Part shown: positions 14,601 to 38,634 of the stretch, piece after piece
Layout: the number at the start of each line of letters is the position of its first letter
Position numbering within the stretch: the first letter of the stretch is position 1
NCBI GenBank assembly: GCA_030390025.1
Contig: CM059432.1
Coordinates: forward strand, 89,468,001 to 89,532,000
Direction of reading: 5' to 3'
Origin: Squalus acanthias
Taxonomy: Eukaryota
Length of the DNA: 64,000 nt
Made by a program: the position numbers and the translations under genes
Notes under the pieces: model-generated
Database searches by the model: none
The model's input: only the letters and a program-made list of their open reading frames with translations
Told to the model about the DNA's origin: nothing

Positions 14601-15599
14601 TTAATGAAGAATTTCTGGAATCATCTGTTTTCTGTTGTTCCATTTTATACTAGCATTCCTACCTTCATTTACATATTAACATCATTTGGATTTTATGTTT
14701 CACAAATACAGGCACATTTGTCATAACATTAAATTTTTTAAAGTACATTTTATAAAAGTGCTCTTTTTAACGTAGTTCTTTTGGGTTAACTGGATAGTTG
14801 AAATGTTGAGAAACCCTCATCATGCTTCAGATCTCCTGACCAAAGTACTAAGAAAACCACAACAGTAAACTTTTCATTTATTTAATGTTGAGTGCACACT
14901 CTGTCCCCGTAGCAACACACCCAACTTTCCAAAGCACAGAGATCTTGGCTTGGGTTGGCAAGACCCAAAGCTTTGTCACCAACAATTATTCATAGGTGTA
15001 CTTCTAAAATTTACCAGCTAAAGCCCTAATAGGCATTGGCAATCTTCCTGCTGCTTGTCTAGTTACCGCCACCCTCTCCATTTGGGCATTGCTTTACAAG
15101 GTTATCTGGAGCCAGTGGCAAGAGTCTCAGCTCCTGATGACACACCCACCCTCTAGGTCCCATCAATGAGGCAGGATGGCTGGTTTATCATCAACCATGC
15201 TCTAGAATATTACAGATCTGCTTGGCTCATTATCACAGATTGCCACAGAGGATCAATTTGGTTCAAATCCTCCATCATGTCATCCAGGGGCCATTTCAAC
15301 CCAATGGTGATCCCACTTATCTCTCCCCAAAAAGATAGGTGGTCATCATACAACTGACAAACATGGTATTGAGCGCTTGATATATGGTTCTTGATGTATC
15401 ATGTAAGAACATAAGAACATAAGAAATAGGAGCAGGAGCAGGCCAATTGCACGGCTTGCCATACAGGTACCCATATGGCAAGCCATGCAATTCAACCATA
15501 AAATGTGTGAATGAATTGACACCATTGACACCATCCTTCTGATGACAGGATGGGCACACACCATACTTCATCACCAGTTGGAGGTGCAGAGCTTCCACA

Positions 15600-17329
15600 T
15601 GTAGAATTCGCAATATATCGCGATTTTATTAATAAGGAGAAAACACAGAGTTTCGTTCAAACAGCTTTTATTTTCAGTAGAATGCTGGCAGGTTTAAAGT
15701 GGACACAAGCAGCCTGTAAAATGGCCGCCGCACCTCGTGACAGAACATTCTAGACTTTTCAACAGGCAGACAAGATGGCGTTCCAATAAACATTTGTGCA
15801 AGATCGATTAAGATTCAGCACAGTGAAGATAATACACGAGACATTATGGGTTTGCAGTATACACATAGATACTGAAATCGGTCTCCCAGGTACAAAGGAA
15901 AGCCATTGTACCGAGTAATCAAGGGCCCATCCAAAAGACATTAATATGTAAAATCCCAACGACTCTACGATGAGAGAGCCGTTAGCAGGTAGTTATACAG
16001 GACACTTGGAAGCCCCAAACCCCTCCAGGGAGAACACCGACCGATTTAACAATGGGAGAAATATTAACAGGTACTCAGACATTTACGAGTAGCCCCGAAA
16101 CCCATTAAGAACGGAGATCACCCATACAAGACATTTGAGCGCCAAACCCTAAACAAAAGAATGGACATTATAGTTGGGCGGGAAACGGAAGATTTTGCAC
16201 TATAATTGCAGGCTCCAAACCGTCCATTCTCTCTCTTGCTCTCTTGCTGCTCTTATCATCGTGGCTGCTCCTGTGCTCTTATCCGGTCGATTCGTAACCT
16301 CGTGGCTGCTCCTGTGTACTCGTAGTTGGGCTCGCTCCTGCTTGCCTGTTGCCTCTTCTGAAAAGACTGTTGAACTTTCTGATCCGTTCGGATCTACCTC
16401 GTGTCGCGTAACGAAGACCTATATTGGTAACCGGTATCGGAACCAAAAGGCCCGAGAAGAGATGAGATGAGATGAGATGAGAAGAGAGGAAGACCATATC
16501 CATCGCCACGGTCAGTAAATCCCGACCGCGCCTGTAGGTCGATTATCCAAGTTTTCCTTGCTAGGAAGACTTCTTCGAACTTATAACGAAACATATTGCA
16601 TCGATGATAACTGGACTGTGCCCAAAGTAACTGGAATGTGAAAGCCATATCGTATCGACGATATTGACAACTGTGCTCGAAGAGTACCTGTTAAACCAAC
16701 CAATATAGATCTTCATCACAGCAGACGGTCCAGCCTGCTAGCCGGAGCAGCAGAAGCAAGTAAACAAGTGGGACCAGGAGATCTCCTGACCGACACGTGG
16801 GTGCTGCGGTGAAAAACATCCGATCAGCTATTCGGAATTTCTCCGAGTTATCATGAGTGGTGAGCATGAGTCTCGAGATCCTACGAAATCTAGTTTAGGA
16901 TAGATATTGATAGGGGAGGGTTTAAGGATTAAGGATATTTGTAATGTGTGCCCCTATTTATTTTGTGCCGTTCGTTCCTCGTTTCCCTAAGATCGACTAT
17001 ATAACTGTTTGTAAGATTGTACTGTCATTAATCTGTGCTTATGACATGTATTTCATAATTTTAAGTATCATGCAATAAAGATTTTCCATTTCGTACCATT
17101 CAAACCAAGTCTACATGAGTTTTATCTCCATTACTGCTCTCGCATCTAAGTCCAGTGTCTAGAACCGTAAGGGAGAGTGATTCGAACCACTCACAGGTGT
17201 GTCTAGTGTTCCCAGACTGGCTGGAGACCAGAACAGGCAACAAGGCCTAGACCCGCACTGACATACAGGCTGCACAGAGCCGCGTGAATCTCACAGGCTG
17301 CGAGACACGCAGGGTCAGAATCCCTTACA
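15600..17329 (+). repeat. 5' LTR (~1730 bp)
   Basis: Starts TGTAG right after the CACA TSD and ends CCCTTACA before the PBS. TATA-like TATAAT at 16201 followed by a pyrimidine-rich tract; AATAAA at ~17074; CpG-rich relative to the flank. Confidence 0.75.
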
Positions 17330-17333
17330 GAAA

Positions 17334-19145
17334 ATGGCGACCGCGGCAGGACACTGGCAGCGAGAGGGTAGTGTGTTAGATTTTGGAATGACTGTACGAA
17401 ATGTTATGCAGGAAAAGATAGCGGATTATGTGTTTGGAAAGGTTAATCTAACTAAGAAATGGATAAGTGAATTGTTAGCGGATAAGAGCCCACTAGAGGC
17501 AGCTGAAAGGTGGACAGATAGTAAAGAACATAGAAAGACACTTGAGAAAGCAGTCTGGCTTATGTGTTACAAAAGGCAGGTTCAGATTTCAAACCAGACC
17601 ATTACAGCGCTAGTAGCTCGAATCAGTCATTTAGAGGGAGAAATGGAGGAGAAGGTTTCTGGAGGGGAGGTGCTCATTAAGAATTTAAATGAGTTACACC
17701 AAGAAAGCCAGGAAGTCTCCAGTCACCTTAAAACAAGGATAGATTATCTCGAGTGCCAGGTCACTGAGGCAAAATTGAATGAGAGCAGGTTAAAGGAAAG
17801 ATGTAACCGCCAAGCTGCCCAGATAAGAACTCAAGAAGAGAGCTTGACGGGGGTTAGGGCGGCATATAAGTTGGCCCTTGAGGATAAGTTTCAGGGAGCC
17901 GATCATAGCGCCTGCCAAAGGGAGATAGAGCACCTCAAAAAGGCCGTGAACAATGCGAACGGCATGGTGTGCCTTATCAATCCGTCGGCGCACCAGCCGC
18001 TAGTAAATGAGAGATTTAGAAAATCCCCACCAAATAAAGCAGAAGAAGTAGTAGCCACTGCGCCCTCCGCGCCACCCAGCTATTCAGAAACCTGGGTTAG
18101 GGAGGAAGCAATGGAAGAAACAAAAGAGCCCATTGAAAAAGAAGTAGGAAAGGGATCGTTGTATCCAGTAACGGGTATTAAAAGGGGCCCAAGCAGAAAC
18201 GGTGGGGAAGAACCGGGGGATCTCCTCGGACAGCTGGTGTTGCCTCACAGTTCACATCAGCTGAGAGCTATGATAAATCACGTACGGAAGCTGACCGAGG
18301 CAGACGACCCTTCCGTACATTTCAGAGAAGTTGAGCAAGCCGCAGCCATTAACGGCTGCGATGATGGGGAAACAGCAAAAATGCTGCTGTTCTCATTAGA
18401 CAGCTCGGTCCTTCAGTGTCTCTCAGGCGAGAGCAAGAGGGGAACCAAGAGTTATGAGGAATTAAAGAATGAGGTCCTGGAAGTGTTGGGGGCGAACGAC
18501 GAAGGTCCGTTTGCTAGAGTGGGACAGACAGTGCAGATGGAGGGAGAACCCCCGAAGGTTTTTGCCGACAGGCTGTGGCCAGTATATGAGCGCAGCTGTC
18601 TAGGTGCGCCCGAGCGCGAAGATGTGGAAGGTTTAGCTTTAACTCATTGGCTTAGGTGCATAATAGCCAACAGTTTACCAGCCGTCAGAGAGCAGGCAAA
18701 AGCATGGTTTGATCCCAATGACCCCAACATTACGGAAGAGTCGGTCTTGAATCGACTCACGTTAGGTTATCGCAATATAAGGGGTATGGCAACACGTCCC
18801 CTTAAGGGAAGAGTACATGAGGTACGACCCGCAGCCCCGTATCAAAGAGAGTGGCATCAGGAGGGTAATCGCGCCCCGCAGGCAAGTAATGCTTGTTACG
18901 GGTGTGGGAAGACAGGGCACTGGCGCAAGCATTGCAGGAACCCTTGGAAGGATTCCAAGGATAAAAATCCCGCGGTCCGAGCCCAGGCGCCTGTCCCGGC
19001 TAAGGAAGCCAAGGCACCCACCCCTCCCGACGACCTCGAAGCAGTGTTAGGAGCCATGCGCAAGCTGGTCTTGAATGCGCGTGGACAGGTGGCGGTCGCA
19101 ACCGGCCCCGTAGGTGCCGCAGGACCGTCTAATAGTACCCCATGA
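17334..19145 (+). CDS. gag: Gag polyprotein (603 aa)
   Basis: N-terminal coiled-coil region, PSAPPSY late-domain motif, MHR-like QMEGEPPKVFADRL, single CCHC knuckle CYGCGKTGHWRKHC (18894-18935). Confidence 0.9.
   Translation: MATAAGHWQREGSVLDFGMTVRNVMQEKIADYVFGKVNLTKKWISELLADKSPLEAAERWTDSKEHRKTLEKAVWLMCYKRQVQISNQTITALVARISHLEGEMEEKVSGGEVLIKNLNELHQESQEVSSHLKTRIDYLECQVTEAKLNESRLKERCNRQAAQIRTQEESLTGVRAAYKLALEDKFQGADHSACQREIEHLKKAVNNANGMVCLINPSAHQPLVNERFRKSPPNKAEEVVATAPSAPPSYSETWVREEAMEETKEPIEKEVGKGSLYPVTGIKRGPSRNGGEEPGDLLGQLVLPHSSHQLRAMINHVRKLTEADDPSVHFREVEQAAAINGCDDGETAKMLLFSLDSSVLQCLSGESKRGTKSYEELKNEVLEVLGANDEGPFARVGQTVQMEGEPPKVFADRLWPVYERSCLGAPEREDVEGLALTHWLRCIIANSLPAVREQAKAWFDPNDPNITEESVLNRLTLGYRNIRGMATRPLKGRVHEVRPAAPYQREWHQEGNRAPQASNACYGCGKTGHWRKHCRNPWKDSKDKNPAVRAQAPVPAKEAKAPTPPDDLEAVLGAMRKLVLNARGQVAVATGPVGAAGPSNSTP
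17335..17352 (+). promoter_or_regulatory. Primer-binding site, tRNA-Arg(UCG)-type
   Basis: TGGCGACCGCGGCAGGAC starts 5 nt after the LTR end and is complementary to the 3' end ...GTCCTGCCGCGGTCG-CCA that I recall for vertebrate tRNA-Arg(TCG). Confidence 0.8.
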
Positions 19146-22100
19146 CTAGAACCGGCGCAGCCCGTCTACCTGTGTCCGCTTAGCTATGATGCGTGGAGGC
19201 GACCTGTGGTGGAGATGGAGGTAGAGAAACAGAAGGGTAGTTATTTGTTGGACACGGGAGCTTCTTGCACCATAATCCATACAGATAACCCTTTTGACTC
19301 GCCGCTATCTACCAAGGTCCCATTCACGTTAGCAGGGTTCACAGGAAAAGAACAGGCTGGCACGTTTTCCCTTCCGCTATCCATTCGTTTAGGAACACTT
19401 CGCCTTAAGTGGAAGTGTATACTGATGGCATGGCAAAAGGGGGGTGGAAGAGGTATTCTCGGGTCCGATCTCCTAGCGGGACACGGGATCCTCGTGGACC
19501 TCAGAAATCACTGTCTTTGGGGGGCTAAAGGTGAAAAAGGCGAGGTAATAGTGATTCCGGGGGAGGAAGAAACAGGGGTCCTGTGTACCGTACAGCCATC
19601 CGGAGGCTACGACCTCAGGCTTATGGTCGCAGATGTCCCAACGGACATGCAAACGTACGTGTCAGATAATATGCACGCGTTTGCAACCCACAAGCACGAT
19701 TGTGGGAGAGTGGTCGGGTTTGAGGTCAGCGTAGATGGGGACCCCATGACCCGACCCCAAAAGCAGTATAACTTCCCCAAAGAAGCCGAACCCGATATGG
19801 AGACAGCAATGTCCTCCTTGGTGCAGCAGGGCATGTTGAGGCCGATAGCCACACACGTGAACTCCCCATTATGGCCGGTTAGGAAGCCGGATAATTCGTG
19901 GAGAGCCACGGTGGACTACAGAGTCCTTAACAGTAACATTCCCGCCTGCGCGCCCACAGTAGCAGCAGTTGCTGACCTAATAGGGAGCATCCCAGCGTCC
20001 GCGACCACGTTCACGGTGCTGGATATCTCGAACGGTTTTTGGTCCATCCCGCTGCGGCGAGAGGACCAGTACAAGTTTGCCTTTACTTTCAAAGGGCAAC
20101 AGTACACGTGGAACTGTCTGCCACAGGGTTTCCACAATAGCCCCAGTATTTTTCATCAGTGTATGGCAGGAAGTTTAAAGGAGTTTAGTCAGCCCAATCA
20201 GATAGTACAGTATGTGGATGATTTGCTCCTATTTACGGACTCAAGGGAGGAGCACGGACCACTACTGGACGAGTTATTGGAGCTGTTAGCGAGAAAGGGT
20301 TTTAAAATAAACCCTAAGAAAGCACGTATCGGTCAGCGGGAAGTAAAGTTCCTGGGACTGACCATACGCGCTGGGGAAAGAGCCATAGACAAAGCAAGGA
20401 GGGAGTCGGTGCAAGAATTACCGATTCCCAACAACGTAAGGGGTGTGAGGTCCTTCTTGGGACTGACCGGTTACTGCAGGGATTTTATCGAAGATTATGC
20501 GGCCACAGCGGCGCCGCTCCTCCGACTCCTCCATAAGGGGGTGGAGTGGCTTTGGGACGAGGGCTGCCAAGCAGCCTTCGAGAAGTTAAAAAGGGATCTG
20601 CAGACCGTGCCAGCCTTAGGGGCCATAGATGGGGGGAAGGAGTTTTTCCTGGAGGTAGCTGCCAGCGGAGACAGCTTAAGCGCCGTGCTGCTCCAAGAGC
20701 GTCACGGCAAGCTGAGGCCGGTTGTCTATTCATCCAGGGTATTAACGGATGTGGAGAGAAGTTTCTCCAATTGCGAAAGGCACCTTTTAGCCACGCATTG
20801 GGCTGTGAAAAGATCAGCGATCTTCACAGGGCTCTCTCCCATCACTCTCCTCACACATCACACACCAACTAAGATGCTTCTGGATGGGAGGATTAAAGAC
20901 GGGACCGTAAGCAGCGCACGCATTGCGCGTTGGACCCTTCTTCTCTCCCAGTTGGATCTTAGAGTAAAAGGTCTTTGCGAGCCAAGGCTTGCGGCCAATC
21001 TGGTATACCCCGGTACAGCCCACCGTTCGGTGGAAGGGGTGTGGGACGTCAACATAGGTTTACGGGCCGGGATACATCCCACTGGGCGCGAGATTTATGT
21101 TGATGGGTCTAGCACAGTATCTGCTGGCGAGCGACTCACAGGGTGTGGAGTTTATGACCCTGCGGCAGACCTTGCCCTGGCGATCAAGCTCCCTAGCACT
21201 ATGAGCGCGCAGCAAGCTGAGCTGTCTGCCGTGGTGTACGTTGTGACCCACCCAGACATTTTCCCAACCCCATACACGATTTGCTCGGACAGTATGTTCA
21301 CCTGCAATTCGTGTACGGAATACCTGGCCATTTGGTCCCGCCGCGGATACACCTCCGCGGACGGGCGACCTTTAACGGTGAAGCCCTTGCTGGAAAAGAT
21401 CTTAGCAGCAGCAGTAGGGGAGGAAGGAGAGATTTTCATCCATAAGGTGAAAGCTCACTCCTCCACAGAGCCCCGTGGGGAGGGCAACCGGCAGGCGGAT
21501 GCGCTAGCCAGGGAGGGTGCCCGCGACGGCACTTTCTGGAACCCCTATAGGACCGGACCCATAGCAGCGGTCCGAGGCGGGGACGGGAATCCCGGGAACC
21601 CCAGGGTAGCATTGCCCCTAGACCTTAAGACCGTCCAAGCCCAGGACCCCGCCCTAAAAGCAGTCCTAAAAACGATTGCTGAGGGGAGGCAGGTAGAAGG
21701 TCCGTACAGTACGGCAACCCTCTCAGTTAAGGAAGGCATGCTGTTCCGCGAGGAGCAGTGGGTTGTGCCGCAGCAGCACAGGAGGGAATTCCTCCAGTTG
21801 GCTCACGAGGGACCAGGGGCAGGGCACCCCGGGCCCGAGGTTACCTGGCAACGGGTAGAGCAAGCGGGATGGTGGCCAGGGCTCAGGGAACAAGTCCGCG
21901 AGTTCTGTGCAAACTGTCTTGTGTGCGCTGCAAACAACCCAGACCCCCAGAAAAGGAAGGTGCCCATGGGACACGTAAGAAGGGTAGAGGGACCATGGCA
22001 GTCGATACAGATCGACTATATAGGACCCCTGCCCACCACCCAGGGAGGTTATAAGTACTGCCTCGTCCTGGTGGATGTGTTTTCCAAGTGGGTGGAAGCC

Positions 22101-23639
22101 TTCCCTTGTCGAACAGCTACGGCACTGGGTACAGCAAAAATCTTGGTCCGGGAAGTGTTCTCGCGGTGGGGACTCCCCCGTTTTGTGGAGTCAGACCAAG
22201 GGAGTCATTTCACCGGCCAGGTGATGCAGAACACCCTCATGCTTTTGGGCATTGAAGGGAAGTGGCACGTAGCACACAATCCCCAGTCATCCGGGATTGT
22301 TGAACGTATGAACCGGACCCTGAAGGAGAAATTGAGGAAAGAGACTAGGAACTCGCCCCAAAAATGGGCGGAAGTTCTGCCTTTAGTCCTCATGGGGGTC
22401 CGGGCCAGTCAGTCAAAAAGTACGGGGTACTCCCCGCACGAGGTAATGACTGGCAGGCTCATGCGAACCCCCACCCATGTGCTAGCCCCGGTGCTCACTG
22501 AGGGTCAGCTCCAGGAGATAAGCAGGGACAAGTTCGCCCAGACTCTCTTGGAGTGCCTGAAGCAGGTTTATGAGCAGGCGGCTGGGAACATGGGAAGGCA
22601 GCATCAGGGCAATCGCTTGTTGCTGGAACCCCGCAAAACACGGGAGTGGGAAGTGGGAGACCAGGTCATGGTCAGAAACTACGCCAGAGTAGGGAGTCTG
22701 GAACCACTGTATATGGGACCCTACAACATTGTAGACAAGGCGAGTCCCATGGTTTACGCCGTAAAAGTACCTCGGCGCACTAAGTGGTTCCACATAAACC
22801 AATGCAAACTGTACCAGCCAGGTGTGCAGGGGAAAACTACAGGGGTAAATCCCGCCAATGGGAAAGCACAGCCCCAGGTAGGACCACAAGGCACACAGGC
22901 AGGCATAGCAGCTTGCATCAGGGGAAGGGACATCCCGGACGATCATGCAGCGTTTTTCTGGAATTGGGGGTTAGATGAGGAAGAATTCAGGGTACCCGGG
23001 TCAGATGAGGATAGTGCAGATGAGGATAGTGATGACGACGGGTGGTTTCGGAGGAACGGTCCCTTTTACGATATGGAGGGGACGGGGGCTGCAGGTAGAG
23101 ATCCACACAGGGTGGACACACGAGCTGCAGGTCCCGAAGACAGGAGGGAGGAGCTAGAGGAGGCGGGGCCAGCCGCGATGGGAGCACAGAGAGTACCGGT
23201 GTGGCTCCCAGAGATGTGGCCGCCCGCTTTGAACGTCCAGTCCTCAGGGGAGGCAGAGATCACGAGTGAAGGGCCGCCTGCTGGGCCGAGCAGGGCGGAG
23301 CCACGAACTGCCAGCCCCGAGGTTAGGGAGGCGGAGTCAGCGGAGGCGGAGCCAGCGACTGTGATGGAACCCCAGGTCATCCCGATGGAAGTCTCGGAAC
23401 CCGGTCCGTCCGTCACGGAAACCCCGCCCATAGCAACTCCCCGTAGGTCAAGTAGAGAACCCCAGCCCAGGAGGATGTGGTCATGTCCCCAGACTGCCCC
23501 AAGGCGAAAATTTAAGGTTAAGATAACCCAGATACAGACCGGTCACATCGCAGCAGTAACAGGCTGCGGCAGATCAGAGGGAAGGGTCAGTGCCCTCCCA
23601 CCGTCGGGAAGAGCTCGCAGCAGCCTTCTCAGAATTTAA
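19146..23639 (+). CDS. pol: Pol (protease-RT-tether-RNase H-integrase plus C-terminal extension), in frame with gag after one TGA
   Basis: LLDTGAS (D at 19251); LPQGF and YVDD (20211); degenerate RNase H; second RNase H YVDGSS/QQAEL/SDS/NRQAD; HHCC zinc finger; IDYIGP...SDQG...IVERMNRTLK; GPY. Frame is open from 19146. Confidence 0.95.
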   Translation, partial: LEPAQPVYLCPLSYDAWRRPVVEMEVEKQKGSYLLDTGASCTIIHTDNPFDSPLSTKVPFTLAGFTGKEQAGTFSLPLSIRLGTLRLKWKCILMAWQKGGGRGILGSDLLAGHGILVDLRNHCLWGAKGEKGEVIVIPGEEETGVLCTVQPSGGYDLRLMVADVPTDMQTYVSDNMHAFATHKHDCGRVVGFEVSVDGDPMTRPQKQYNFPKEAEPDMETAMSSLVQQGMLRPIATHVNSPLWPVRKPDNSWRATVDYRVLNSNIPACAPTVAAVADLIGSIPASATTFTVLDISNGFWSIPLRREDQYKFAFTFKGQQYTWNCLPQGFHNSPSIFHQCMAGSLKEFSQPNQIVQYVDDLLLFTDSREEHGPLLDELLELLARKGFKINPKKARIGQREVKFLGLTIRAGERAIDKARRESVQELPIPNNVRGVRSFLGLTGYCRDFIEDYAATAAPLLRLLHKGVEWLWDEGCQAAFEKLKRDLQTVPALGAIDGGKEFFLEVAASGDSLSAVLLQERHGKLRPVVYSSRVLTDVERSFSNCERHLLATHWAVKRSAIFTGLSPITLLTHHTPTKMLLDGRIKDGTVSSARIARWTLLLSQLDLRVKGLCEPRLAANLVYPGTAHRSVEGVWDVNIGLRAGIHPTGREIYVDGSSTVSAGERLTGCGVYDPAADLALAIKLPSTMSAQQAELSAVVYVVTHPDIFPTPYTICSDSMFTCNSCTEYLAIWSRRGYTSADGRPLTVKPLLEKILAAAVGEEGEIFIHKVKAHSSTEPRGEGNRQADALAREGARDGTFWNPYRTGPIAAVRGGDGNPGNPRVALPLDLKTVQAQDPALKAVLKTIAEGRQVEGPYSTATLSVKEGMLFREEQWVVPQQHRREFLQLAHEGPGAGHPGPEVTWQRVEQAGWWPGLREQVREFCANCLVCAANNPDPQKRKVPMGHVRRVEGPWQSIQIDYIGPLPTTQGGYKYCLVLVDVFSKWVEAFPCRTATALGTAKILVREVFSRWGLPRFVESDQGSHFTGQVMQNTLMLLGIEGKWHVAHNPQSSGIVERMNRTLKEKLRKETRNSPQKWAEVLPLVLMGVRASQSKSTGYSPHEVMTGRLMRTPTHVLAPVLTEGQLQEISRDKFAQTLLECLKQVYEQAAGNMGRQHQGNRLLLEPRKTREWEVGDQVMVRNYARVGSLEPLYMGPYNIVDKASPMVYAVKVPRRTKWFHINQCKLYQPGVQGKTTGVNPANGKAQPQVGPQGTQAGIAACIRGRDIPDDHAAFFWNWGLDEEEFRVPGSDEDSADEDSDDDGWFRRNGPFYDMEGTGAAGRDPHRVDTRAAGPEDRREELEEAGPAAMGAQRVPVWLPEMWPPALNVQSSGEAEITSEGPPAGPSRAEPRTASPEVREAESAEAEPATVMEPQVIPMEVSEPGPSVTETPPIATPRRSSREPQPRRMWSCPQTAPRRKFKVKITQIQTGHIAAVTGCGRSEGRVSALPPSGRARSSLLRI

Positions 23640-23669: not shown

Positions 23670-23765
23670 AAAGTTATAGTTCTAAGTTTTAAGTTTATAG
23701 TTCAAGGTTAAGTTTTAAGTTTATAGTTCAAGGTTAAGTTTTATGTTTTATTAAGGTTAAGTTTG
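23670..23765. repeat. Imperfect ~26-bp AT-rich tandem repeat between pol and env
   Basis: GTTTTAAGTTTATAGTTCAAGGTTAA twice plus degenerate copies. Confidence 0.8.
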
Positions 23766-23950
23766 TAGTGTTTTTAACAGAAAACGATAAAATGATGGGA
23801 GTTTTAAAGATAGGTTTAGTTGAAGTTTATTCAGCGAACGTTGAAGTTTACGTGAGGCGAGGTCAGGGGACCCGCTCACCCTTCACAAAAGCCAGAGACT
23901 CTTGCGAGGCTGGCTACCTCATTCTATCTGATCACAGGAACCAAGGAAGG

Positions 23951-26302
23951 ATGGAACGAATTCTAGTATTGCTCGCGGCAATCGGATGTGGATTGGCCTA
24001 TCGAGGCCGCACCAAGGATGTCGTGGTGTTTGGATGTTCCGGGGACACGGCCCCCATCGCGGTGGATGGGACCGGAAGACGGGAGGCAGAGGAGACCAGC
24101 ACCTATTTCCACAAGGGAAGGTGGCCAGGATGGCTGGGAACGAACTCAACGGAGTATTCCAGCACATCGGGGTTTGCCTACCAAGAGACTTCTTTACTGT
24201 GCCCCAAAGTAAGGATCATCGCACCCAGGATCAGCGTCACCGTCGGCAAACGGATTTGTTTGACTTGTAGTGGGAAGGTCCCATTGAGCCGATGGTGGTG
24301 GCTGCGAAAGCTGAGCAAAACTATGAGGAACTCTTCGGTCGAGTGGGAACGACTGGGTAATAATACCCATCGGACAATTACGGGGACAGACGGACAAGTG
24401 AAAGTCTGTTGGGACAAATGGTGGGAACCGGATGAGGGAATTTATGTATGTATGTGGGGGTCAAAGTACGTTTGCCCCAAAGGCATCTCCATATTTTTTA
24501 TTAATCAATGGCAGGATAACGGACAGGGGATGAGGTGGGATGCGAGCACCAGGGGGTGCGGAGCCCCATTCTCCCCGATCCCAGTAAATGCCACTGAGCT
24601 CATTACGCGCCCACGCAAAGCCCCGCCCACGATTCCGGTGGTTCTAGCTGAGGAAGAAGGGTGCCCTAAAACTAGTAAGGGACCCGGGAATGGTTTGGTA
24701 CTGGTCCCCACAGACCAGATACTATTTCAGGGGGTACATTACGCGGTGGCCTCGGAGATTTTAAATCTCACTGAGGTGCGGTTACCAGAGTGGTGCCCCA
24801 AAAAGATGGAACAGTTGTACCAGGTCCTGTTGACCAAGATGTTCAGACAATTTTACGAATTCGATTTCGCGGAAATTGATAAAACAAGTTTGTACACCGC
24901 ACCACAGGAAGTTTTGGATCAAGTAGGGAGGCAAAGAAGGGGTTTGGTGAACGATGCGTTCACTGCTTTTAACACAGGTACATCTGTGGTCAACGCTCTA
25001 GACAGTGTGGAGCTGCAGACCCAGATTAATGGTTTAAAGACACAATTAAAGGACATTCTAACAGATGAGAATAAAGTGGTAGGGTCGGGTCTACACGAGG
25101 ACCAAGCCATGACCCTCCATTTAAAGGAAATTATAGCAGAGTTGGAGAAACATGCAAAGACGGTAAATGCCCTGATTAGGGAAGATCGGAATGCATCCGA
25201 TCAAGCTGCGCAGAACGAGGTGTGCGTGCTTTACGGGGCGTGGTTACTGGGCGAGGGCCGCAGTAATTTGGAAGATTTAAAACAAGGTTTGGTTCCGTCC
25301 TGGATAAGTAACAAACACCTGCGGGCGCTCCACCCTTTTCAGAACGCATTAAGCCCGTGCCAGCTCAGGCTAGCTTCAGAAGCATACCCAGTCCCCGTGG
25401 ACTGTGGACGATCAAACCATACCATCATGGGTATAGTTTTACGTATGCCGGTTTTGGGCGACACAGCAAAGCCCGCCCCGGTATATCGGGTAGAGAACAT
25501 TGGTGTCATTCAGGGGGGAGCCCACATTCGTTATGCAGCGGTTCCACCTTATGTCATCCGCTGGGAGCAAACGATGACAGGTACAGATCTCTCTGGTTGT
25601 CGTGGCAGGGGAGCACACATAATACTGTGCCCCCAGCACTTGAATGCCTTTTTAACACCACAGTGCGGGTTCAGAACGACTGGCGCCAAGTCCATGAATT
25701 GCACCATGGAGGCAATGGCACAAGATCATGTGCCTCCGCAGGTAGCATACATCGGGGGTGGAACATATTGTGTTACCACTGCAGCGCAACACTACCAGCA
25801 TGGAAACCGTAGCCGGTGTCCGGTGAGTGACAGCAGTTTCTGTTTTAAACCCAGGGCGGAAGTTCAAGTAGCACAACAGCGAATTATCCCAATCCCTGAA
25901 CCATCCACTGTTCATCTCACAGTAAAAGAGAATTTCACCGACTTGCAGCGATTCGTCGCGCATTTTGGATACCTCATTCCCCCTCTCCCTGAACACCTCA
26001 CCAAGCTTTTGAAAGCCGTCGCGGTGTCACAGAAACATTTTTATACATTAGAGCAGAAAACTGTCGAAATAGGAACAGACATTCTGGATATAGTAGTTCC
26101 ACCGTGGTGGAATCTATTCACCAATATTGAAGTACCTTCATGGATCAGAATAGCCTCCCACATTTTAGTCGTATGCCAAGTTTTCATTGTAGTGTACCTA
26201 TTGGTTGTACATTGTAAAAGAGACAAACGCCTCACCAAGCATGAAAACACGGGAGAGTGGCGAGAACGTTACGTGCGCGTGCACGATGAGAGCACCGTGT
26301 AA
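23951..26302 (+). CDS. env: Env glycoprotein (~783 aa): signal peptide, Ig-like domain, F-type class I fusion protein
   Basis: AGGATGG start; MERILVLLAAIGCGLA signal; furin site RQRR (24929-24940) followed by GLVNDAFTAFNTGTSVVNAL; heptad repeats; Cys-rich region; TM ILVVCQVFIVVYLLVV; short tail. The ORF is open from 23768. Confidence 0.88.
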   Translation: MERILVLLAAIGCGLAYRGRTKDVVVFGCSGDTAPIAVDGTGRREAEETSTYFHKGRWPGWLGTNSTEYSSTSGFAYQETSLLCPKVRIIAPRISVTVGKRICLTCSGKVPLSRWWWLRKLSKTMRNSSVEWERLGNNTHRTITGTDGQVKVCWDKWWEPDEGIYVCMWGSKYVCPKGISIFFINQWQDNGQGMRWDASTRGCGAPFSPIPVNATELITRPRKAPPTIPVVLAEEEGCPKTSKGPGNGLVLVPTDQILFQGVHYAVASEILNLTEVRLPEWCPKKMEQLYQVLLTKMFRQFYEFDFAEIDKTSLYTAPQEVLDQVGRQRRGLVNDAFTAFNTGTSVVNALDSVELQTQINGLKTQLKDILTDENKVVGSGLHEDQAMTLHLKEIIAELEKHAKTVNALIREDRNASDQAAQNEVCVLYGAWLLGEGRSNLEDLKQGLVPSWISNKHLRALHPFQNALSPCQLRLASEAYPVPVDCGRSNHTIMGIVLRMPVLGDTAKPAPVYRVENIGVIQGGAHIRYAAVPPYVIRWEQTMTGTDLSGCRGRGAHIILCPQHLNAFLTPQCGFRTTGAKSMNCTMEAMAQDHVPPQVAYIGGGTYCVTTAAQHYQHGNRSRCPVSDSSFCFKPRAEVQVAQQRIIPIPEPSTVHLTVKENFTDLQRFVAHFGYLIPPLPEHLTKLLKAVAVSQKHFYTLEQKTVEIGTDILDIVVPPWWNLFTNIEVPSWIRIASHILVVCQVFIVVYLLVVHCKRDKRLTKHENTGEWRERYVRVHDESTV

Positions 26303-26584: not shown

Positions 26585-26995
26585 GGTTTAAGGATTAAGG
26601 ATATTTGTAATGTGTGCCCCTATTTATTTTGTGCCGTTCGTTCCTCGTTTCCCTAAGATCGACTATATAACTGTTTGTAAGATTGTACTGTCATTAATCT
26701 GTGCTTATGACATGTATTTCATAATTTTAAGTATCATGCAATAAAGATTTTCCATTTCGTACCATTCAAACCAAGTCTACATGAGTTTTATCTCCATTAC
26801 TGCTCTCGCATCTAAGTCCAGTGTCTAGAACCGTAAGGGAGAGTGATTCGAACCACTCACAGGTGTGTCTAGTGTTCCCAGACTGGCTGGAGACCAGAAC
26901 AGGCAACAAGGCCTAGACCCGCACTGACATACAGGCTGCACAGAGCCGCGTGAATCTCACAGGCTGCGAGACACGCAGGGTCAGAATCCCTTACA
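26585..26995 (+). repeat. Truncated 3' LTR (last 411 bp only)
   Basis: Matches 16919-17329 base for base by eye; no copy of 15600-16918 upstream of it. Confidence 0.9.
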
Positions 26996-36267: not shown

Positions 36268-38237
36268 TACATAGAAACATAGAAGATAGGAGCAGGAGTA
36301 GGCCATTCGGCCCCTCGAGCCTGCTCCGCCATTCGATGAGATCATGGCTGATCATCTAAACTCAGTACCCTGTACCTGCCTTCTCTCCATATCCCTGGAT
36401 ACCTTTAGCTTTAAGAAATATATCTAACTCATCCTTGACTATATTTAATGACTTCGCCTCAACTACCTTCTGTGGTAGAGAATTCCACAGGTTCACCATT
36501 CTCTGGGTGAAGAAATTCTTCCTCATTTCTGTCCTAAATGGTTTACCCGTTATCCGTAGATTATGACCCCTGGTTCTGGACTCTCCGAACATCGGGAACA
36601 TTCTTCCTGCATCTAGTTTGTCCAGACCTGTCAGAATTTTATATGTTTCGATGAGATCCCCTCTCATTCTTCTATACTCCAGTGAGTATAAGCCCAATCG
36701 ACCCAATCTCTCCTCATATGTCATTCCTGCCATCCCAGGTATCAGCCTTGTGAATCTTCGCTGAACTCCTTCCATGGCAAGAACATCCTTCCTCAGATAA
36801 GGTGACCAAAACTGCACACAGTACTCAAGGTGTGGTCTCACCAAGGCCCTGTACAACTGCAGCAGGACATCCCTGTTCCTATACTCAAACCCTTTCGCTA
36901 TGAAGGCCAACATACCATTTGCCTTCTTCACCGCCTGCTGCACCTGCATGCTTACTTTCAGCGACTGGTGCACAAGGACACCCAGGTCTCGTTGCACTTC
37001 CCCTTCTCCCAATCTATTGCCATTCAGATAATAGTCTGCCTTTCTGTTTTTGCCACCAAAGTGGATAACCTCGCACTTATACACGTTATATTGCATCTGC
37101 CACGCTTCTGCCCACTCACCCAACCTGTCCAGATCATCCTGGAGTTTCTCGCTATCCTCCTCGCTGCACACACTTCCACCCAGCTTTGTGTCATCTGCAA
37201 ACTTGGAGATATTACATTTAATTCCCTTATCTAGATCATTAATGTATATTGTGAATAGCTGGGGTCCAAGGACCGATCCCTGCGGTACCCCACTAGTCAC
37301 TGCTTGCCACTCGGAAAAAGACCCATTAATTCCTACTCGCTGCTTTCTGTCCGCCAACCAGTTCTCTATCCAAGTCAATACCTTGCCCCCAATCCCATGT
37401 GCCTTAACTTTACCCGCTAATCTCTTATGCGGGACCTTATCGAAAGCCTTTTGAAAGTCCAAATACACCACATCTACTGGTTCTCCCTTATCTATTTTCC
37501 CAGTTACATCCTCAAAAAATTCCAGTAGATTAGTCAAGCACGATTTACCTTTTGTAAATCCATGTTGACTTTGTCCGATCCTGTCACTGTTTTTCAAATG
37601 CTCAGCTATTACATCCTTTATAATGGACTCTAGCATTTCCCCCACTACCGATGTCAGGCTTACCGGTCTGTAATTCCCCGCTTTCTCTCTACCACCCTTT
37701 TTAAATAGTGGGGTAACATTAGCTACCCTCCAATCCATGGGTACAGTTCCAGATTCCATCGAATGTTGGAAGATGATCAGCAATGCATCTACTATTTCTA
37801 GGGCCACTTCCTTAAGTACCCTAGGATGTATATTATCAGGCCCTGGGGATTTATCAGCCTTCAATCCCGTCAATTTCCCTAACACCATTTCCCTGCAAAT
37901 ACTGATTTCTTTCAGTTCCTCCCTTTCATCAGACCGTATGTTCTCCAACATCTCTGGGAGGTTATTTGTGTCCTCCTTTGTGAAAACAGAACCAAAATAT
38001 GCATTTAATTGGGCTGCCATTTCTTTGTTCCCCATTATAACTTCCCCCGCTTCTGACTGCAAGGGACCTACACTTGATTTCACTAATCTTTTTCTCTTCA
38101 CATATCTATAAAAGCTCTTACAGTCAGTTTTTATGTTCCCAGCAAGCTTACTTTCATATTCTATTTTCCCCTTCTTAATTAATCCCTTTGTCCTCCTTTG
38201 TTGAATCCTAAACTGTTCCCAATCCTCAGGGCTACAG
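36268..38237 (-). mobile_element. Young CR1 LINE, 5'-truncated, with open RT frame
   Basis: 656-aa ORF 36362-38332 (N-terminal ~30 aa not LINE-derived) with NYRPVSLTS, GVPQGSVLGP, KFADD; intact 3' tail. Confidence 0.95.
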
Positions 38238-38634
38238 GTTCTGCTGGTCTCCTGAGTTAGGGCAAGAAACCGGTCAAAACGCTGAGCAATTTTAGCTCCA
38301 TTGTATTTACAGGAAAAGGCCACTAGGCCCAAACCAGCCTGTATCTTTTTCTCAGACCAACGTCACTTGCCCACGACTTCACGAGACCCTTTGAACTTTC
38401 TCTCAAGAAAGATATCTATTTGTCGCTTCAATCCATTTATACGGCCCACTTCAACAGCTTTCCCTGCTAACTTATTCCACAATTCTATTACCTTCTGGGT
38501 GAGAAAGTTCCTCCTGATTTCCTTTTTAGATTTTAACTTCCTAATTTTTAACATGTGTCCTCTGGTATTTGAAGTCTTCACTATAGTAAACAATTTGTTT
38601 TGGTCAATTTTATCAATTCCTTCCCTAATTTTTT

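Follow-up and report, generated by a model that had tools for sequence, protein, structure and literature searches.

The window, a 64,000-nucleotide stretch of the Squalus acanthias genome, holds at position 15600 a long element in which gag, pol and an env-like open frame lie between two LTRs (Table 1). Judged from its sequence, this is probably an endogenous retrovirus related to snakehead retrovirus (SnRV). In a tree that contained no named SnRV row, its reverse transcriptase (RT) clusters with elements of amphibians and coelacanth, and it looks similar to SnRV in a published alignment; because the tree had no named references and the likeness was judged by eye, "SnRV-like" should be read as a likely kinship. 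The nearest named Gag is a skate protein (51% identity). The last 20 bases of the LTR occur 1661 times in the genome as exact matches.

The 3' LTR of this copy measures 411 bp, with the upstream 1.3 kb missing. Split-LTR replication, in which only 411 bp would be repeated at the 3' end, was considered and rejected. Other copies of the element in the same genome keep long 3' LTRs, and the short one is therefore a local truncation. At the end of gag, the TGA is followed by CTAG (19143–19149) in frame with pol, a context that we take to be a read-through signal. The env-like frame gave no significant match to Pfam, the PDB or the named Atlas clusters. Identity as a lokiretrovirus is unsupported: its Env gave no match to PF00523 (paramyxovirus fusion protein) at E values up to 10, a weak negative. 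An immunoglobulin-like match in the N-terminal part of the env-like protein is weak (E 0.51), and an acceptor-like site lies at 23780, by the start of the frame.

Table 1. Features of the element at 15600 and of its predicted U5 domain
Feature	Position	Strand	Remarks
5' LTR (TG...CA), 1730 bp	15600..17329	+	4-bp target-site duplication CACA at 15596–99 and 26996–99
TATA-like box TATAATT	16201..16207	+	putative transcription start near 16230
Splice-donor-like G/GTGAG in predicted R	16860..16865	+	about 213 nt before poly(A) signal; putative donor
AATAAA poly(A) signal	17074..17079	+	U5 would start at about 17100; signal common to distant families
P0, 5' strand (U5-leader-stem equivalent)	17152..17160	+	absent from the first-pass annotation
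Linker GAACC	17162..17166	+	invariant, unpaired; complementary to tRNA-Arg positions 52–56 (TPsiC arm), with which it may pair
P1, 5' strand (U5-IR-stem equivalent)	17167..17174	+	closing stem of the first-pass annotation
Hairpin H1, GAGTG/CACTC	17175..17192	+	8-nt loop conserved in sequence; dispensable in cis
Variable arm	17197..17266	+	best-supported pairing 17197–203/17260–66 and 17205–09/17255–59, enclosing AGGC/GCCT
Family-specific hairpins GGCT/AGCC and GCGTG/CACGC with TCTC/GAGA	17268..17310	+	absent or different in related families
P1, 3' strand	17321..17328	+	LTR end (integrase attachment site)
gag ATG	17334..17336	+	strong context, with A at -3 and G at +4; the PBS begins with its T and G
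gag	17334..19145	+	TGA end in frame with pol
PBS, 18 nt	17335..17352	+	directly after LTR; complementary to 3' end of host tRNA-Arg(TCG)
P0, 3' strand	17349..17357	+	last 4 PBS bases and 5 gag bases (codons 6–8)
pol	19146..23639	+	protease, RT, RNase H-like tether, RNase H, integrase
env-like open frame	23738..26302	+
3' LTR remnant	26585..26995	+	identical to 16919–17329; carries second copy of U5 domain

Predicted Helices P0 and P1

The first-pass annotation had described a densely folded U5 domain that closes 5 nt before the gag ATG. That spacing is right (17328 is the last base of the stem and 17334 the first of the ATG), and every complementary segment that it listed lies where it had been placed. 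The domain extends further than described, however, since the 5' end of U5 can form a second, outer helix with sequence behind the ATG. The predicted helices P0 (outer) and P1 (inner) form a bracket around the AUG and PBS, and the unpaired GAACC linker separates the two helices. Their predicted probabilities are 0.99 for P0 and 0.97 for P1, and both also form in a 1250-nt context. Pairing of U5 with the AUG itself was rejected; it occurs in folds that start too late and is replaced by P0 once the region is extended.

The comparison of U5 covered families within the S. acanthias genome. Four groups have the ATG inside a tRNA-Arg PBS, and we refer to them as families A (that of the element at 15600), B, C and F. 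Their Gag proteins are 63–69% (B), about 40–46% (C) and 40–45% (F) identical to that of family A, and the PBS of family C matches tRNA-Arg(ACG). The ATG is found at the PBS in 126 of 128 junctions. P0 can form with at least seven pairs in all 128 anchored junctions (37 of A, 39 of B, 28 of C and 24 of F), a count that leaves out three junctions, L138 and L221 because they did not fit the anchor and L169 because it did not fit the PBS pattern. At least six P1 pairs are found in 126 of the 128, with extensions that are specific to each family. With the AUG lying inside the PBS, gag codons 6–8 hold the 3' strand of P0, and the residues that they encode change with the helix; the first Gag residues are thus dictated by RNA structure.

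Changes on the two strands of P0 match. For five P0 types, the strand from the same type was the best partner in 5/5 cases by row and by column, and the true matching tops the 120 permutations. A test set was chosen by the 3' strand alone, after a U5 variant had been noticed in family-F LTRs. Of its family-F copies, those with the 3' variant show the U5 change predicted to match it (3/3), and those with the common 3' form have the common U5 partner in 16/17 (one unresolved). The three variant copies are one lineage and therefore count as one event. In the family B test copies, pairing is kept through G-U in 9/9. GAACC is present in 30/30 test-set loci, and family C has GAACT, which would pair through a G-U; a linker census over the anchored junctions is partly circular, as the anchor itself demanded GAA(C/T)(C/T).

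Covariation had been proposed as a check on the U5 domain, and it supports a conserved structure beside the gag AUG across the four families. In an alignment of 18 sequences, which are related, represent few independent events and have the family C rows out of register, the outer five pairs of P0 together with H1 were 90.9% paired versus 83.8 ± 1.1% in shuffles, and slid partners gave 21–45%. The covariation score was 0.241 versus 0.133. Both the paired cells and the covariation score lay above all 500 shuffles; pairs changed on both sides numbered three, which is not above shuffles (289/500). H1 has one U-A to C-G swap.

Some loci differ in what surrounds the PBS. PBS forms alternate within a family at L035-L064 and L065-L094, matching different tRNA-Arg genes, and Gag residues 3–6 change. 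Two LTR ends 10.9 kb apart (L005 and L006) share the same non-PBS sequence after base 1520 of the oriented loci, perhaps reflecting a PBS insertion or a tandem arrangement. In related families with ordinary leaders (L155, L163, L156 and L174), U5 is also predicted to pair at the PBS or with bases behind it.

The Interior of the U5 Domain

Dense pairing, as first described, holds up in outline: the earlier model pairs 92 of 162 nt (57%), but several of its inner pairings are probably wrong and it cut the domain short. It has a folding energy of -50.9 kcal/mol, versus -58.5 kcal/mol for an alternative interior with an equal number of pairs, a gap of 7.6 kcal/mol. Within the ensemble of 17150–17359, pair probabilities were high for the closing stem (0.97), GCGTG/CACGC (0.97), TCTC/GAGA (0.93) and GGCT/AGCC (0.87), intermediate for CCAG/CTGG (0.52) and GAGTG/CACTC (0.41), and low for GTCTAG/CTAGAC (0.16), CTGAC/GTCAG (0.06) and TGTTC/GAACA (0.0). 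GTCTAG/CTAGAC is disrupted in 8 of 56 close copies, and in the same eight the disrupting change is linked to one that strengthens the alternative helix. TGTTC/GAACA is disrupted in 22 of the 56 (13 deletions and 9 mismatches). The earlier register is predicted in a subfamily with a 12-nt deletion (L130), and the interior may therefore fold in more than one way.

The predicted excess of folding stability was found for the 162 nt as delimited (-59.5 kcal/mol, z = -3.21, matched by 2 of 200 shuffles), but it depends on the ends chosen: 162-nt windows slid over the U5 domain in 40-nt steps gave z values of -1.3 and -0.8. Since moving the ends brings z to about -1, stability on its own carries modest weight. 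Two windows in U3 (15760–16041) gave z values of -4.4 and -3.3 (30 shuffles each).

Much of the interior is dispensable. The distance from linker to PBS is 141–171 nt in family A, 116–151 nt in B, 103–107 nt in C and 39–80 nt in F, and the topology in between differs by family. A subfamily comprising 13 of the 56 close copies has lost one arm. One family-F variant is missing the 3' half of H1 together with the hairpin that follows, and retains P0, GAACC, P1 as a plain hairpin and the PBS. Its LTR has 71 exact matches on many contigs; the variant is present in both LTRs at two loci, with a target-site duplication at one, and has different flanks at four. The U5 regions of both LTRs are copied from one RNA end, so a variant found in both has been packaged, reverse transcribed and integrated. 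Since it propagated, packaging does not require the interior in cis. The proposal that the multibranch interior is an IRES or packaging signal is thus unsupported, given an interior that ranges from 39 to 171 nt, a 71-copy variant without it and the Rfam result given below.

A Candidate Primer-Docking Domain

We think it likely, on the strength of the predicted folds and their conservation, that the U5 stretch is one half of a primer-binding domain that positions tRNA-Arg and aids the start of reverse transcription. The tRNA would anneal to the 18-nt PBS and displace four of the nine P0 pairs. The freed TPsiC strand of the tRNA (positions 52–56) could then pair with GAACC, in the manner proposed for avian sarcoma virus and for the HIV primer activation signal (PAS). 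P1 would be the first template copied, and the hairpins stacked on it would be family-specific additions, unneeded in cis.

The linker contact is conjectural. The tRNA positions that match the linker are near positions 59–76, which pair with the PBS. The match is 5 bp only, is one of 15 U5–tRNA matches of at least 5 nt, and is blind to covariation, as all primers share GGTTC. In H1, TCGAACC (17182–88) is complementary to tRNA 52–58. Two-strand folds with the tRNA lose P0 and pair the bases behind the PBS with the tRNA 5' end, by a method that cannot draw the linker contact. Passages of PMC3185550 describe a U5–TPsiC contact as proposed for avian sarcoma virus and place the PAS within HIV helix 1; the same source notes that the PAS model is disputed for HIV.

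A bolder extension, to which we attach a low probability, starts from a gag AUG that lies in the PBS and within the outer helix, and would make the primer tRNA a switch from translation to packaging and copying. A core of less than 90 nt (two stems, 5-nt linker and PBS), rendered genome-specific by the splice donor in R, would then replace the whole leader, packaging signal included.

The 5' Untranslated Region

The first reading had assumed a 5' untranslated region (UTR) of about 1.1 kb with several upstream ATGs and no leader after the PBS. The sequence is consistent with this layout, in which transcription would start near 16230. The TATAATT box has a counterpart in five of seven family-F LTRs examined; a second TATA-like site near 16998, which would give a short 5' UTR, was rejected for want of a family-F counterpart. 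One raw RNA run yielded 0 reads for the region, and in contigs from runs of uncertain kind no joint resembling an intron appeared across 15560–17800; neither result counts as evidence on start site or splicing. Upstream ATGs number 13, versus 21 expected by composition, and all of their frames are of 44 codons or fewer. Four of the 13 come from a (GAGAT)n repeat in R (16455–16495). An in-frame Met at codon 25 (17406–17408) is common to the four families and the skate Gag and is a possible second gag start; the constant 24-codon spacing favors use of the first ATG.

Weighing the Alternatives

Two of the alternatives assign U5 a role in translation. The first-pass annotation favored an IRES that loads ribosomes onto the gag AUG past the 1.1-kb 5' UTR, and the 13 upstream ATGs and the strong AUG 5 nt behind the stem are what such an element would serve. 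Dual use has a precedent in the HIV-1 IRES that overlaps the PBS region, according to passages of PMC6337239, and the deletion variant is silent on translation, since proteins can act in trans. Nevertheless, no IRES was matched in Rfam at E values up to 5 over 15500–17500, where three weak unrelated matches were found, and an interior of 39–171 nt with family-specific topology offers no conserved multi-domain fold. Family F would have to manage with about 75 nt, whereas the HIV-1 element in its minimal form takes up about 225 nt according to the same passages of PMC6337239. The AUG, moreover, is enclosed by P0 rather than free behind the structure. An IRES is unlikely, and as an account of the whole domain we give it only a slim chance. 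U5 could mainly govern gag translation by some other route: shunting or reinitiation, a spliced gag RNA, or a primer that hides the AUG. The short upstream frames would suit a shunt, one of them ending at 17163 beside P1, and passages of PMC5035957 describe a shunt for foamy virus gag. That frame is not conserved in family B, where its ATG is missing, and a shunt by way of it was discarded. The LTR end and next base form an acceptor-like CAG in families A, B and C (17322–17330 reads CCCTTACAG, 3 nt before the ATG), but there is no AG at that place in 24/24 family-F junctions. The primer does cover two bases of the AUG. That the domain mainly governs gag translation by a route other than an IRES is, in our view, highly improbable.

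The other two alternatives concern packaging and the nature of the signal itself. With no leader behind the PBS, U5 could hold a packaging or dimerization signal, which could also act together with primer docking; we regard this as doubtful. The GGTGAG motif upstream of the poly(A) signal, present in 124/128 junction loci across the four families, is placed as in foamy viruses (passages of PMC3694450 and PMC5035957), and splicing from a donor in R would leave U5 out of the env message, so that only genomic RNA would carry it. In this foamy-virus-like arrangement, GGTGAG may also suppress 5' polyadenylation. (A GTAAGG within P1 was rejected as a splice donor, families C and F having no GT there.) Also in favor of packaging are a TCGA palindrome in the H1 loop of A, B and F, and the lack of H1 and of this type of P1 in three related families with ordinary leaders (two loci each, a single contrast). 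Against it, the variant without H1 and the inner arms has been packaged, copied and integrated many times, one arm is lost in the 13 close copies noted above, and the palindrome reads TTCGAA in families A and F, shrinks to TCGA in B and is broken in C. Room for a required signal is left only in the small core or early gag, and a packaging role may be open to the P0–linker–P1 core, not to the arms. Finally, the pairings could have arisen by chance in the GC-rich end of an LTR or could be a signal at the DNA level, as might be argued from the z values near -1 with shifted ends, the lack of support for several inner helices, and variation of the H1 loop in A, B and F at the two free B-box positions (by eye). 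The two-strand matching changes, in P0 over a spacing of 90–190 nt and in H1, speak against this; the B box is broken in family C, and no matching A box was seen by eye. For P0 and P1 the chance or DNA-level reading appears largely refuted, and we consider it extremely improbable overall. On its plus strand, the H1 loop (17178–17188) reads as the complement of a tRNA T loop and, on its minus strand, as a Pol III B box.

Comparison with Known Systems

The docking arrangement that we favor resembles that of avian sarcoma/leukosis virus, in which a U5-leader stem, a U5-IR stem and a U5–TPsiC contact with tRNA-Trp are combined; this layout was reportedly worked out by Aiyar et al. in 1992 and Morris et al. 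in 2002. In both, two stems bracket the PBS, and the stretch of U5 lying between these stems complements the TPsiC arm of the primer. The shark element differs in using tRNA-Arg, in placing the "leader" strand of the outer stem in gag codons and in the overlap of AUG and PBS. Its inner stem bears a variable multibranch cap, and its complementary segment is of 5 nt, whereas that of the avian virus is of 7 nt.

SnRV, said to have been described by Hart et al. in 1996, reportedly has a tRNA-Arg primer and a coiled-coil Gag. Its LTR spans 518 bp, and non-coding sequence separates its PBS from gag; the shark LTR is 1730 bp, and gag runs from the PBS. Shared with SnRV and the SnRV-like ERV clade, to the extent that passages of PMC12193657 describe it, are the RT likeness seen by eye and a double RNase H.

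As in HIV-1 helix 1, U5 pairs just 3' of the PBS, and an additional U5–tRNA contact has been proposed; according to passages of PMC3185550 and PMC1865047, the HIV PAS is 8 nt long and buried in helix 1, whereas the shark candidate is unpaired. In HIV, DIS, SD and Psi lie behind the PBS, and the shark element is without such a leader. Likenesses to prototype foamy virus, as far as passages of PMC3694450 and PMC5035957 go, are the donor in R before the poly(A) signal, a long 5' UTR with short frames, and cis signals spread over R–U5, PBS and early gag. In the same passages, foamy virus is unlike the shark element in its tRNA-Lys1,2 primer, its leader with a dimer palindrome and the making of Pol from its own RNA. 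In the shark element, unlike foamy virus, pol follows gag in the same frame after a single TGA, and Gag has a zinc-knuckle-like motif.

The frame around the primer site is a variant of a known retroviral device and not a new kind of element or a new IRES. Mutagenesis of avian retroviruses and HIV had already revealed such a two-stem frame; the extra tRNA contact remains under debate. What the natural families add is compensatory changes and a propagated deletion, which define the minimal frame in a distant retroviral lineage; this suggests that the two-stem primer-site design is old. In the literature covered, older primary papers and preprint supplements excepted, we found no description of such a U5 structure in SnRV-like or cartilaginous-fish ERVs. 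The minimal frame is a small RNA suited to probing. Elsewhere in the window, on the minus strand at 36362–38362, a separate 666-amino-acid frame with a reverse-transcriptase domain probably belongs to a LINE.
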